Part shown: piece by piece, positions 3,120 through 61,794 of the stretch
How positions within the stretch are numbered: position 1 is the stretch's first letter
How the letters are laid out: each line of letters opens with the position of its first letter
NCBI GenBank assembly: GCA_036785375.1
Contig: JAWMAR010000872.1
Location: forward strand, 124,001-188,000
Length of the DNA stretch: 64,000 bases
Direction: 5' to 3'
Source of the DNA: Leucoraja ocellata
Taxonomy: Eukaryota
Notes under the pieces: generated by a model
Seen by the model: only the letters and a program-made list of their open reading frames with translations
Databases searched by the model: none
Told to the model about the DNA's origin: nothing
Position numbers and translations under genes: made by a program

Positions 3120-4385
3120 GAGGACAAATGGGAATACTTATTGTATTCATCCTTAATGCCTGAAATCGTGGACCAATTTATGTCTGCACACAGTATGGCC
3201 AAGATGTGGCTTTGGGCTGTTTATTGCCAAGTATTAGTCAATACACAAATGCAAGGCAATGGCTACTTACTCCTGCCAATCTGTAGCATTACCTCCCTCA
3301 GGTCTAAAAACAAAGTTGCAGTTGTCCATTAAATGCAACTGGACCAGCTCCAAGTTCTATAGCTGTAAAAGCAGACCGGAGACAGGATAGCCTGCAATAA
3401 CTGGGAAAAATATACATCTTCTAGATGCGCTGGGACGCATCCTCAGTGATGTGATCTGGGGTCATCGGGTGTTTCGGGTCTCACAACATCAGACACCCTC
3501 GCCCAGGCGACCCAGCCGGGGTTGATCAGGCCCCGACTTGCGTCCCAGCAGCAAACGCCCATGGATCAGCCCTCTTAATAACTACTCTGCAGGGGTTGGG
3601 AGACTCTAGTTCATGGAGGGACTGGGCTCTGTGAGGTGAGTCCCGGCCGGGCTCCTCCTGCGTCTCACCAGGTTCAAGGCCCGTGCGCTGCACCTTTCTC
3701 CTCCGAGCATTTCATTCTGGCCTAATGGATTTTTAGGCCATGGTGGTTCATTAGGCCTTTCTGTAGCTTTATTGGGTGACTTTCTCACGAAAGACACAGA
3801 CTGAGGTACTAACCCAGCCTGTTCCGGGTGCCGTCTTTCCGTGCCGTCAACTGTCTCTCACCTCACGGCCAATACAATTATTTTTCCATCCACTAAGTAT
3901 AAAGTCTGGGGTATGATGAAAACCTCTCTTCCTTCTGGATAATTGCTGTTTCAACAATGTTGAAGAGATTGACGAGAAAAATAGCTCACACGATCAGAAT
4001 GTCCGACACTATTAAGATAAACATGCACTTCTTTCATTATCTGTGCACTGACATTGCAGCATTTGCCATCTACAAGATGCAGTATAGCAGTTTGTTAAAG
4101 CCTGTTTTTCTTAAAAAAAAACTTTACACACCACAATACTTCCATTATCCAAAAGCAGTGGGCAAATGGGAACGCCACCATCTCCAAGTTGCTCTCCGTG
4201 ATATAATATGCAAACCATTCCTCCATCATCAATATTGAAAACTTTGAGTTACTTGTTTAACAGCACTGAGGAAAGACATTCACCAGAGACGACAGTGCAT
4301 TTGAACATATGCTCTGCCATTAGTTTCTGAAGGGTATTAGTACTGGCTCTGCTAATGACACCCACTTCTAGTAATCTATTATAAA
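3120..4385 (+). mobile_element. Old CR1-like LINE 3' portion, interrupted by the HERO derivative
   Basis: Motifs ccatctacaagatgca, atgggaacgccaccatct and ctggctctgctaatgacacccac; homologous pieces at 6785-7520 (-), 27095-27870 (-) and 36105-36370 (+). Confidence 0.55.
3412..3870 (-). mobile_element. Internally deleted HERO-like (R2-group, RLE) non-LTR retrotransposon
   Basis: Minus strand reads NHHGLKIH*ARMKCS (3748-3704, zinc-finger remnant). PGETQEEPGRDSPHRAQSL..CRVV (3672-3580) is fused in frame to IKRADPWAFAAGTQVGA* (3579-3526). A HERO-type 3' UTR follows (gacccgaaacacccgatgaccccag..catcactga). Confidence 0.75.
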
Positions 4386-57160: not shown

Positions 57161-57638
57161 CCTGGTTGTTGAACTGACTCAGTGAGCAAGTTGAATGAGT
57201 GCAGGTATGTTAGAGGATTTAAGGCTGGAGGAGACTGGAAGGTCATGGAAGAATTTGGAGTTGTACAGATACCTCGGGGGATTTTACATTAAAAGAATCT
57301 GCAGAGATATATTTAGGCTGTGGAAGAATTTGAAATCATGTTGAAAATGTCAAAATCAAGGTGTTGATTAAGCAGGTCAGTGGCCAGCAAGCACAGCCAC
57401 AATTAGAAACACTTGACATGAATGCAGACGAAGGCCATAGAATAGCACAACTTGCAAGAACGTTGACATCAATAATATACCTGGTATATTAAATATTGTT
57501 GTTCACTCGCTTTGATGAGAAAGAATAACATTATAGCACGCCTGTATTAGTTTTATTGTTACTCTTCTTCTTATCAAGTCGAAGATTAGAAGCTGAACAC
57601 ACCTCTCGGCATCTGCACACAATGGTGTGGGTCTTGTG

Positions 57639-57708
57639 CTTCTTGTGTGTGGTGGTGGATAGATTGGTGGAGACAGGCCCGCGACGTGAACGCTCTTTCC
57701 TTCACCCC
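57639..57708 (-). mobile_element. 70-bp ribozyme-capped mini-retroposon (Ingi/Vingi-type tail)
   Basis: HDV-like fold followed directly by accaccacacacaagaag, resembling the gccacacgaaagaagaag tail of 60053-60188. No clear TSD. Confidence 0.65.
57657..57708 (-). ncRNA. HDV-like (CPEB3-type) ribozyme fold, P1 degenerate
   Basis: GGGGTG-AA-GGAAAGA(P2)-GCG(P3)-TTCACGT(L3)-CGC(P3')-GGGCCT(P1')-GTCTCCA-CCAA(J4/2)-TCTATCC(P2'). P3 3/3, P2 6/7 and P1 4/6 paired. Confidence 0.75.
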
Positions 57709-58310
57709 GTTTTATTGTTAAAGTCAGTGTTGAAAATATAAATGCGATTTGAGATCTTGTCTCTAATTAGAACCCTGATCATGGCTCCAGGCCACAATAT
57801 AGACTATTGGATAATTTTTGGTCTTCAGAAGCACTTAGTGCCAAAATGTTGAAGCCACTACACCCTAGTTTATTTCCCTTGCCTCCACTTTGCTGTTCGT
57901 GTTCTTTATCAACCTTTTAAGTGTCGGTACAGTTGCTGAGTTGTATACAGGTCACCTTTTAGATTAAGCGCATTGTGTGTATTTGCTTCATCTGACTGAC
58001 CTTTTCCACAAACACTGAGAGTGGATGAGGCAACACTTCAAGCAAGGAATGAGTAATAGTTTTTGAGTGGATGTCTTTGTTGATTATGATTTATATAACA
58101 TAACTGATAATAAAACTGATGTACAAATGGCTGAAAAACAGAAAGTGGCTGCTCAGAAATGTTTTTGTACTGAAGGCTGTGCATTAAACTTAGTATTATA
58201 AAATATAGTTTATTGTGCATCTGAAAATGTTATCCATAATGAACATTAAACCTGGTGTTTCTTCAAGAAGGGTGTAGGTGATTTTAGTAAGTGTGTGGCA
58301 CATTGGTCAT

Positions 58311-58765
58311 ACGAGGATGTTGCCAGGACTAGGAGGTCTGAGCTATAGGGAGAGGTTGAGTAGGCTGGGACTCTATTCCTTGGAGCGCAGGAGTATGAGG
58401 GTGATCTCATAGAGGTGTATAAAATCATGAGAGGAATAGATCGGGTGGATGCACAGAGTCTCTTGCCTCGAGGACTAGAGGACATAGGTTTACGGTGAAG
58501 GGGAAATAATTTAATAGGAATTTGAGGGATAACATTTTCACACAAAGGGTGGTGGATGTACGGAATGAGCTGCCAGAGGAGGTAGTTGAAGCAGGGAGTA
58601 TCCCAACATTGAAGAAACAGTTAACAGGTACATGGATAGGACAGGTTTAGAGGGATATGGACCAAAAGCGGGCAGGTGGGACTAGCGTAACTGGGACATG
58701 TTGGCCGGTGTGGGCAAGTTGTGCCGAAAGGCCTGTTTCTACATTGTATCACTCCACAACTCTAT
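58311..58765 (+). mobile_element. CR1 3' fragment
   Basis: RMLPGLGGLSYRERLSRLGLYSLERR...FTQRVV.V.NELPEEVV. Confidence 0.85.
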
Positions 58766-59374
58766 AATAGATTTCCTGTTTTAATCATAAAATTACTAAC
58801 ATTTTTGTGCACATGCAAACAATGACCTTCTAAACAAATGACAATTTGCTTGTTCTAATACTGACTGAGATCTGTGCAGTTTGCCTATAATAATGCATCC
58901 ATTTGGTACATTTCCAAAATGCAGTCATGTTTAGAAATTGATGACAGAGGCTGAACGGAAATAAATTAAACATTGAGTTTAAGAAGCCAAAAGAAACCCA
59001 AAACTTCATTTTTCAACATGAGCTGTGAAAGAAAAATTGCTTCATTGAAGTATTTGACCCAAGTATAAAGAATGTAAAAGTGATTTCACGGAGGAAACAA
59101 ATTCATTGTTTGGAGTAATAATTTCACTGTTGGTTCAATTGATAACACTGTGAAGTCAAAGCTTAAAAATTCAGCAACAATTTATTTGCCACTGACAGGT
59201 AATCTTTCAACAGTATTAAATGACTTTAATCCAAAATATTTATTCATTGATCTGCCATGGTGTTACTCACAGACATAAATTGTTTGCTTTTCATCCTATA
59301 ATTATGTCTTGGTCAGATCCTATGCCTCTACCTTTTTTGTTTATTTTCCACTCTCTTCGTTAACATCTGCTTAG

Positions 59375-59755
59375 ATAGAGTCATAGATTAATACAGTGTG
59401 GAAATAGGCCCTTTGGCCCAACAATGTCCCAGCTACCCTAGTCCCACTTGCTTGTGCTCCAAACCTGTCCCATCCATGTACCTGTCCAACTGTTTCTTAA
59501 ACGATGGGATAGTCCCAGCCTCAACTACTTTCTCTGGCAGCTTGTTCCATACACCCACTGAGTGAAAAAGTTGCCTCTCGGATTCCTATTAAATCTTTTC
59601 CCCTTCACCTTGAACCTATGTCCTCTGGTCCTCGATTCCCCTACTCTAGATAAAAGAATGTGCATCTACCCGATCTATTCCTCCCATGATTTTGTGTACC
59701 TCTAAGATCTCCTCTCATCCTCCTACGCTCCATGGAATAGAGACCCAATCTACTC
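59375..59755 (-). mobile_element. CR1 3' fragment
   Basis: Reverse complement of 58355-58765-type sequence. Confidence 0.8.
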
Positions 59756-60052
59756 GCTGGATTTGTTCATTTTTGTTCTGTATTTCATGTAACTGAAGCA
59801 AAAAATTAATAACAGTTTTCATATTTTGATTTGATTTACCAACAGAAAGCAGGATTTCTGGGAAGCTGTGTCTTGTGGGGTACGGTGGCATTTGCACTGG
59901 GCCATGACTGTTCATAATCAATATTGATGAGTAGTATTAAGGTATCATGTGTAATAAATCCAAATTTGCTTATGATACCATGTTAGGTGGCATTGTAGAG
60001 GCAAAGGAAATGGGGTTAATGCAGGAATCTTGCACCAGGGTGGAAGGCCACT

Positions 60053-60188
60053 CTTCTTCTTTCGTGTGGCGTGCACAGCCTAAAGTTGTAGGACAACTTG
60101 TTCTATTTGATCTTCCATTTGTGCACGTCGAGTTGATTGCATTAGTCGAAACAGGGCGGACCACGTGAAGGTTGCAATCTTCCACCCC
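60053..60188 (-). mobile_element. 136-bp ribozyme-capped non-autonomous retroposon (Ingi/Vingi-like)
   Basis: Perfect 10-bp TSD gaaggccact (60043-60052 / 60189-60198). The 5' end is ribozyme G1; the 3' end is ccacacgaaagaagaag. No pol III A/B boxes. Confidence 0.88.
60135..60188 (-). ncRNA. HDV-like self-cleaving ribozyme fold (54 nt, minimal P4)
   Basis: GGGGTGG(P1)-AA-GATTGCA(P2)-ACC(P3)-TTCACGT(L3)-GGT(P3')-CCGCCCT(P1')-GTTTCGA-CTAA(J4/2)-TGCAATC(P2'). P1 has 7 bp with the G1-U wobble, P2 7/7, P3 3/3; catalytic C present in a CNAA context. Confidence 0.9.
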
Positions 60189-61794
60189 GAAGGCCACTTG
60201 ATCTCACTCAATTTGGACGTCAAAATACTGTACACATTTTGAGGAGCTTTCTTAAAACCATGCAACCATTCTAAATGTAATCAATCTTTTTGAAAAGTTA
60301 ATTAAAGAGTAAAAACAACACATGCTGAGATAGGCAGAAATAATAAATTCAGGTAAAATCTAATAGCTCAGTCAGCATTATGGAGATGAAGGTAGAGTTG
60401 ATGTTTTAAAGACGTTTTATCATTATTGGGAAAAGATAGATAGGAGAGATAATGGAGAAGAGTGAATAAAACGGGGTGCTTGTGATTGTGTGAAGAGGCT
60501 GGGTGACAAGTAGTTTTGCTGCTGACTAAGGAGGGGTAACGCATTACAACATTTAGGACTCGATACTGAATTCAGCTGCTGCAGATAATCTGTCACTGAC
60601 TTTAATCTCACATTTCCAGCACTCGTTAAATGTTCTGGTACAGGTAATTCTTGGCTTCCATGGTAGAGGTGGGGATGGGGGCTGATGGAGGTAGTGGGGT
60701 GGGGGCTGGTAGGTTGTGGTCCTAGAAAATGGTCCGCATTGTAATTTACCGTGACGCAAACCACAATTCATCGACGAATGTGAGTTGAAGAATATAATTG
60801 ATGTTGATTGATTTATTATTTGTAAATTTTATACTGCATTATAAGATTTTTGGGTGTTGATTTGTGAATTCTGATAGGGTAAATTTCCATTAGCCAAACA
60901 GCCGTACATTTTGGGTTGTCTGGATTTAAGATCTCTTTCATTTGCTACGTGTGCCTGCTGCAACTTTTCTGTTTTATACTAGTTGTGCATATCCTTACGG
61001 TCGGTCCCACTGCATGCCTTACTATACTGCTCCTTATCTACCACAGGCATTTCCGTTTTGTTCTTCCTGCTCCATCCCCACAACATCAATACTCCACCCC
61101 CCCCCCCCCCTCCCATCTGAGATTTTTCTGGAATTTTTAACATATTGAATATCTAATTTCCAATTCCAAGGGCATCGATCTGAAACATTCTCTTTGCTTT
61201 CTTTGTCGATGGTTTCCATGCTTTCTTCTATGCTATTCCCTTCTATGCTATTTCTATGCTTTTTTTTATTTCTAACATTATTTGTTTCCATTAAAGATGT
61301 TTCAGAATTTTCAATATTTTTGTTGCAAATTATTTGTTCTACAGAGCAAAGAGATAAAAGAATCAAATCAGATTATGTGCACAAAGAAGGGATATAAATA
61401 AGCCCCTCATTTGAGTCGCCCTGGCTTATTTTTCTTAAATCATCTTGGCCTGGCAACTTGAGTTAGGACTGCATGGTTCTTTCCCATTTCCCCAATAGTA
61501 TAGGTAGGAATAAAAGATGCACGGGTTCACTGTGAGGCAACACCCATGGTTCGATGTTTTCCAAATGCTGTCTTTACTGAAGATGATTTGTTGTTCTGCA
61601 GAAAATTTAAATTTTATTTTACTGTTTGCATTGTTAGTGGAGTTGTTTTGGGATCTAAATTTGGCGTACTTGTTTAATAATCAAAGTCTTCAGTCAATAA
61701 GCCGACTGCATCTGATGTTCCCAAATGGTTTTCCCTCCACTCTCGCAGTTGCGTTAACTGGGTCATTGAAATGAGTGCATTGATCTTTGTAACA

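Follow-up and report, generated by a model that had tools for sequence, protein, structure and literature searches.

What are two short elements that begin with the same predicted ribozyme fold doing on one stretch of animal DNA, and which enzyme could have put them there? The question is raised by elements A and B, which lie on the minus strand of the 64-kb stretch analysed here (the window, in its full length). In our assessment both are quite probably short non-coding retroposons which start at a predicted HDV-like ribozyme lacking P4, excise themselves from host transcripts through it and are copied by a Vingi-type enzyme.

A descriptor of the HDV-like fold, with a loop pattern known from the literature, was run over the window with 30 Markov shuffles as control. 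Exactly two sites were returned (A and B) against 0.07 per shuffled window; Rfam at the gathering cut-off gave nothing in the whole window. The two heads measure 52-54 nucleotides and satisfy the nested double pseudoknot of P1, P2, P3 and P1.1, with a G1 wobble closing P1. P4 is absent from both and a 5-nucleotide linker takes its place; counted with GU, this is the 7-nucleotide P4 replacement reported in the preliminary description. P1.1 consists of a single C-G pair that does not vary, which is also the state of the Rfam consensus of the CPEB3 ribozyme, and the linker of B could allow the J1/4 G to pair with the catalytic C.

The two window copies differ in their state of preservation. In B, P1 pairs at 7/7 positions including the G1-U wobble, P2 at 7/7 and P3 at 3/3, and the J4/2 cytosine is present. 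In A, only 4/6 pairs remain in P1 and 6/7 in P2, so that the predicted ribozyme of this copy is likely inactive. A weak score of 14.6 bits for A on the CPEB3 ribozyme model RF00622, under the cut-off of 35, gave the lead for the comparisons below; B gave no match to this model.

Most motifs that the preliminary description had listed as common are indeed found on the minus strand of both elements: GGGGUG at the 5′ end, UUCACGU in L3 and the CCU-GU junction, as well as the differing P3 pairs ACC/GGU and GCG/CGC. Its statement that P2 differs in sequence and yet stays paired applies fully to B, while the A helix, with the letters quoted, contains an A-A mismatch. The J4/2 consensus CYAA describes the window copies (CCAA and CUAA) but is too narrow for the family, since the second base varies and CGAA occurs in 33 of 85 B heads. 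GGGGUG itself is a minor variant in A, the usual P1 of this family being GGGGUC/GGCCCU (19/28 heads). The common CCACAC..AAGAAG tail had to be abandoned: in A that segment (57639-57656) is internal, and the element continues to its real (AAG)n tail and a duplication at 57561, so that the left boundary first drawn cuts A. The revised features are collected in Table 1.

Table 1. Elements A and B in the window: position, strand and basis of each feature.
Feature	Positions	Strand	Basis or remark
Element A, internally deleted copy, 147 nt	57562-57708	minus	bounded by perfect target-site duplications
HDV-like fold of A without P4, its G1 at 57708	57657-57708	minus	fold descriptor
Actual 3′ terminus of A, with its end motif and (AAG)n tail	57562-57580	minus	
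12-bp target-site duplication of A, 3′ copy	57550-57561	none	100% identical to 5′ copy
12-bp target-site duplication of A, 5′ copy, adjoining G1	57709-57720	none	
Element B, young full-length copy of the larger family, 136 nt	60053-60188	minus	target-site duplications
HDV-like fold of B without P4, its G1 at 60188	60135-60188	minus	fold descriptor
Body of B: predicted long stem with a small hairpin inside, followed by ACACGA and (AAG)n	60053-60134	minus	
Perfect 10-bp target-site duplication of B, 3′ copy	60043-60052	none	
10-bp target-site duplication of B, 5′ copy, adjoining G1	60189-60198	none	

Covariation between families, which had been claimed from the two window copies, was examined in an alignment of 12 hand-chosen heads (11 distinct): the two copies of the window and a single representative of each family or subfamily. 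Twelve of the 18 pairs change on both sides, and 95.9% of the cells pair compared with 40-51% when the partners are slid; as the heads are relatives of one another and their choice was guided by the fold, these figures are support for the fold and not a probability. The G1 wobble, C22-G, the C of J4/2 and the AA directly after it are invariant. In samples biased toward intact heads, the fold is fully intact in 57/85 heads of B and 17/28 of A. In inserted copies of A, decay has gone about as far in the core (4.0% at non-CpG positions) as in the body (5.1%), and the non-CpG variants shared within A fall nearly all in the body and the linker. Selection on the fold, as first proposed, therefore acted on the source elements and not on the two window copies, given this even decay and the broken P1 of the window A.

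The site of B is empty in the related organism G, where one contig (run X23) joins position 60053 to 60199, and filled in the relatives E and F; B is therefore an insertion. Within the families, the best duplication ends at G1 in 22 of 29 B copies of the core-pattern sample, the other seven having no tail call; for A copies selected through their body, it ends within one base of G1 in 17 of 25. Both families are multi-copy, devoid of an ORF, flanked by duplications and terminated by a microsatellite. Two features of the surroundings may be mentioned. The flank past the tail of B (60038-60046) contains a 9-nucleotide complement of its first bases (60179-60187), which could be a competitor of P1 if this copy is transcribed by read-through. 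Between A and B lie two LINE 3′ fragments in opposite orientations (58290-58760, plus; 59370-59760, minus), which we take by eye to be CR1-like; the reading frame of the plus-strand fragment resembles a reverse transcriptase tail.

The large genome-wide population anticipated from the window exists. In the source genome of 3.44 Gb, exact matches to the core motif number 10,733, compared with 7 for its reversed control, and the hairpin motif of the A body has 1,908; these counts leave out copies that have decayed, and they contain passive tandem arrays as well as duplicated contigs. B-type copies make up 96 and A-type copies 4 of the first 100 core-motif matches listed. All A- and B-type loci read are short elements of ~136 nucleotides for B and ~165-170 for the non-coding A, of which the window copy is a version shortened by internal deletion. 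B contains old and young subfamilies: 20 unbiased copies lie 5.2% from their majority and the top matches (n=27) 0.9%, while the top matches of A (n=26) lie 3.1% from theirs.

Classical SINEs carry a tRNA, 5S or 7SL head, unlike A and B, whose head has the HDV-like fold from its first base on; the window search returned no Rfam tRNA, 5S or 7SL match in either element. At two loci on C1 (L345 and L346, at 19.26 and 19.42 Mb), tandem units of 1.95 kb each hold an intact B head in one orientation, and these copies have no duplication of their own. A source locus beside a small-RNA gene was considered there and rejected, no tRNA or Rfam match being present. With no small-RNA gene found and a unit that also contains fragments of other repeats and a CA tract, the arrays are read as passive amplification.

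Beyond the head, the bodies of A and B have no common sequence; what they share is the architecture and the last ~16 nucleotides. From unrelated sequences, each body can fold into a long stem with a small hairpin inside. The folding z-scores of these stems are -4.1 and -3.7 in the best copies and -1 to -2 in others; for B, the value of -4.1 belongs to the old-subfamily copy L071, and the window copy reaches only -1.0.

Candidate partners emerged from a covariance-model search of the genome with RF00622, which scored 59 places, 56 of them over the cut-off of 35 bits. Of the 30 loci read, most turned out to be LINE 5′ ends. The LINE V1 is represented by six full-length copies of 3,123-3,146 nucleotides, 1.7% from their majority. 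They open at base 1 with a head that contains P4, hold a single long ORF, which is interrupted, and end in an (AAG)n tail, with a duplication as well. Pfam recognises an endonuclease and a reverse transcriptase in the ORF, and no RNase H. Loci L121, L123, L124, L126, L128 and L129 represent the young 3.1-kb Vingi-type family, in which many of the copies found are full length; all Vingi-type copies read carry stops or frameshifts. In databases, the relatives are proteins of ~1,000 amino acids without RNase H, those bearing RNase H being found at 32-35%. A reverse transcriptase tree of 53 rows places the RNase H-less rows in one group (100/100) apart from the nine RNase H-bearing rows and unites V1, V2 and the metagenomic L207 and L208 in one sub-clade (98/82). 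Vingi elements are defined by a compact single ORF with endonuclease and reverse transcriptase and without RNase H (excerpt of PMC13708176). The 3.1-kb LINEs fit this type, an assignment based on domain content and tree shape, no row of the tree being named Vingi or Ingi.

Both ends of A recur in these LINEs. An intact head of the A family matches the V1 head at 32 of 37 positions (E 1e-6) and its end matches the V1 end at 16 of 18; the terminal 17 nucleotides of B (L002) are identical to the end of the Vingi-type L205 (17/17). All five long elements compared (V1, V2, L205, L207 and L208) terminate in GACACGA followed by a microsatellite, and A and B resemble them there, with ACACGA or a close variant before the microsatellite. 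Since the genome thus contains LINEs whose head is homologous and whose 3′ terminus is the same, A and B likely use a Vingi-type enzyme. By sequence, the descent of the A head from a Vingi 5′ end through loss of P4 appears clear. For B the same descent is less clear; its head gives no sequence alignment to any LINE head. The P4-containing pattern occurs at only 49 places in the genome, ~200-fold fewer than the P4-less heads. As to the 3′ end, the young B subfamily (L001-L030) terminates in ACACGAAAG, as the young LINE V1 does, and older B copies (L061-L090) terminate in ATACGCAAG; the V1-like end of young B may possibly be an adaptation to its current partner.

The bodies of the short elements are less easily traced. 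They align with V1, V2, L207 and L205 over no more than the last 15-18 nucleotides. A Vingi ORF was found upstream of the A body in none of 30 loci read out of 1,908 matches, and upstream of the B body in none of 30 loci read among 101 matches with shifted head. A direct parent of B was sought among 17 B-type heads with altered linker, none of which has P4 or an ORF. Two further proposals were rejected: as a Vingi C-terminal peptide, the A body scores at best 4.8 bits where shuffles reach 8.6, and a 3′ stem common to A, B, V1 and V2 is not seen, the ends of V1 and V2 folding no better than shuffles (z +0.7). Short derivatives of other Vingi-type families do occur in the genome. L096, L101 and L332 are internal-deletion products with P4-containing heads and (AAG)n tails; L332 is a plain deletion that joins the head to the last ~70 nucleotides of V2, and L137 and L150 likewise join a head to a scrap of C-terminal coding sequence.

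No LINE with an A or B body having been found, mobilisation by another clade (RTE, CR1 or L2) has to be weighed, the Vingi-like terminus then being due to chance or tail exchange. This terminus is short and half of it is microsatellite, and RTE elements also bear HDV-like heads (extract of PMC5786205). We consider this explanation very unlikely, as the head of A is Vingi-type by sequence, the terminus recurs in five Vingi-type elements, which come from this genome and from metagenomes, and the age of V1 (1.7%) overlaps that of young B (0.9%).

With a Vingi-type partner, the cycle of A and B would comprise four steps. First, a host transcript would read through a sense copy. The fold would then form and the J4/2 cytosine would cleave 5′ of G1, which would give a uniform 5′ end and make a promoter unnecessary. 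Subsequently, the Vingi protein would recognise the terminal ACACGA-(AAG)n, perhaps together with the body stem. Finally, it would nick the target and reverse transcribe from the AAG repeat, leaving a duplication of 10-13 bp. Target-primed reverse transcription is established biology of non-LTR elements.

RNA reads come from ~6% of a poly(A) run of the related organism F, and 761 of them fall on B. No pile of read starts is seen at G1 among these reads, and 238 cross G1 into many unrelated flanks, the strand of the reads not being resolved. They neither show nor exclude cleavage, because copies lie inside host transcripts in either orientation and are often decayed. The first mate covers B with 194-296 reads per bin on the minus strand and 94-172 on the plus strand, the direction of the library being uncalibrated; under the usual convention this would mean antisense copies at about 2:1 over sense copies, and no use is made of it here.

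A different role for the head would also be compatible with reads that run uncut across G1 and with the missing pile of starts. The head could be an internal promoter, or a protective or protein-binding fold, with transcription starting at G1 and P4-less heads that no longer cleave. Such a promoter would likewise produce starts at G1; the Pr77 head of trypanosomes is promoter and ribozyme at once (extract of PMC3383444), and P1.1 consists of one pair only. Nonetheless, the C at the catalytic position, the AA, C22-G and the G1 wobble are fixed while all three helices covary, and a DNA promoter needs none of these. Furthermore, P4-less HDV-like ribozymes are active in vitro (extract of PMC10879173), and the reads across G1 may stem from antisense or decayed copies. 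We therefore hold a head without cleavage to be rather improbable and retain the predicted ribozyme.

The match to RF00622 leads from the elements to the mammalian CPEB3 ribozyme. This ribozyme has in common with A and B the L3 loop, the CCU-GU junction and the single P1.1 pair, and with A also P3. In contrast to the multi-copy heads of A and B, whose window copies score below the cut-off, it is present as a single copy in a CPEB3 intron. On its model, Vingi-type LINE heads reach 64.7 bits against a cut-off of 35 and a typical A head reaches 28.2. Two P4-less A variants, L145 and L149, pass the cut-off with 36.4 and 38.7 bits, and their 7-bp P1 is identical to that of the CPEB3 consensus. An older low-copy family of heads (L130, L131 at 328-406 on the plus strand, L136, L140, L147 and L150) is near-identical to the CPEB3 ribozyme including P4. 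L130 (4286-4356, minus) agrees with the Rfam consensus at 55 of 62 positions with both P4 arms included, as counted from the printed alignment. It is a head-only insert between short duplications and, by analogy, could serve as a model for how the mammalian copy arose.

Metagenome contigs provide related heads from other sources. Among the 80 loci related to the LINE that were kept, the descriptor found five folds, two of which (L207 and L218) lie just upstream of an ORF start. L207 (2082-2154, plus) is a complete Vingi-type copy with a duplication and a (TCA)n tail. Its head, one of 12 loci given to the model, scores 55.6 bits on RF00622. Across P1-P2-P3-P1 it agrees with 35 of 37 positions of the CPEB3 consensus, and at the 3′ end with 10 of 11; a change in its L3 is matched by one in J1/4, which creates a second P1.1 pair. 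The heads of L218, L222 and L281 use other stems, so that the CPEB3-like letters are not forced by the fold.

The likeness could in principle reflect convergence on an optimal HDV-like sequence rather than descent. The fold leaves L3, P3 and J4/2 little freedom, and the genome yielded no copy tied to a CPEB gene: four or more CPEB loci were located, a number that fits a jawed vertebrate, and none of the 59 Rfam or 49 pattern matches is sense-oriented near those found, their introns being scanned in part. The letters of P1, P2 and P4 are free, however, as family B, L218, L222 and L281 illustrate with their different stems; yet L207 and L130 match the consensus through these helices at the values given above, and the CPEB3-like heads sit in the one supported sub-clade of the reverse transcriptase tree. 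Convergence thus seems unlikely to us, and a Vingi sub-lineage with CPEB3-like heads is the likely donor of the mammalian ribozyme. We lean, if only slightly, towards the full combination in which the CPEB3 ribozyme is a domesticated Vingi head and its P4-less version drives more than 10,000 of the smallest known ribozyme-capped retroposons. That vertebrate intronic ribozymes were domesticated from mobile elements is a published idea, put forward in the available text of PMC7761336 with no donor named. The literature searched contained no report of a link between Vingi and CPEB3; earlier lists of ribozyme-bearing elements may include Vingi-type heads, maybe under Ingi.

Ribozyme-headed short retroposons are already known, for instance NARTc and R2 SIDE, and comparison with them defines what is particular to A and B. 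NARTc, RIME and SIDER of trypanosomatids, whose partners are L1Tc/ingi, are equally short, non-coding and begin at an HDV-like cleavage site (Pr77); several heads of this kind are active in vitro (extract of PMC4035085). NARTc and RIME have a 77-nucleotide head with P4 and are described as truncated LINE versions, whereas A and B have their smaller head without P4, a total length of 136-170 nucleotides, more than 10,000 copies and bodies that correspond to none of the LINEs found. Bipartite non-autonomous LINEs (Vingi-1_EE derivatives, Bov-A, R2 SIDE) consist of a LINE 5′ end and a LINE 3′ terminus, a make-up that A and B would share, and resemble A and B in their missing ORF, microsatellite tail and duplications; only RTE, Ingi, Vingi and R2 are listed as clades making them (Kojima 2018, extract of PMC5786205). 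In A and B, the putatively LINE-derived 3′ part is limited to ~16 nucleotides; a LINE-derived 5′ part is seen in A through its 32/37 match to V1, and the B head has no sequence match.

The closest likeness in fold is to the minimal or theta HDV-like ribozymes, which also lack P4 and carry the catalytic C in J4/2 (extracts of PMC10879173 and PMC6326823). As given in the available text of PMC10879173, ~99% of P4-less HDV-like ribozymes come from gut phages, often beside tRNAs, and none from the eukaryotic genomes searched there. Theta ribozymes are phage-encoded beside a tRNA, whereas A and B head retroposons in an animal genome and their flanks are insertion sites. P4-less ribozyme retroposons from a vertebrate-type genome appeared in no report of the literature searched, although priority is uncertain.

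If this reading is correct, minimal HDV-like ribozymes, reported almost only from phages, have a job in an animal genome, where the predicted fold is present in more than 10,000 copies, many of them apparently intact. Where sense copies lie in genes, they could cleave host transcripts. The 136-nucleotide element may define the minimal cis signal of Vingi, namely a self-made 5′ end and a short 3′ terminus; Vingi is a clade under development for gene insertion, and the excerpt of PMC13708176 mentions no Vingi ribozyme. Finally, the CPEB3 ribozyme has so far been without an outgroup or a named source. Vingi-type heads would supply both, and a memory-linked human ribozyme would then be a domesticated Vingi head.
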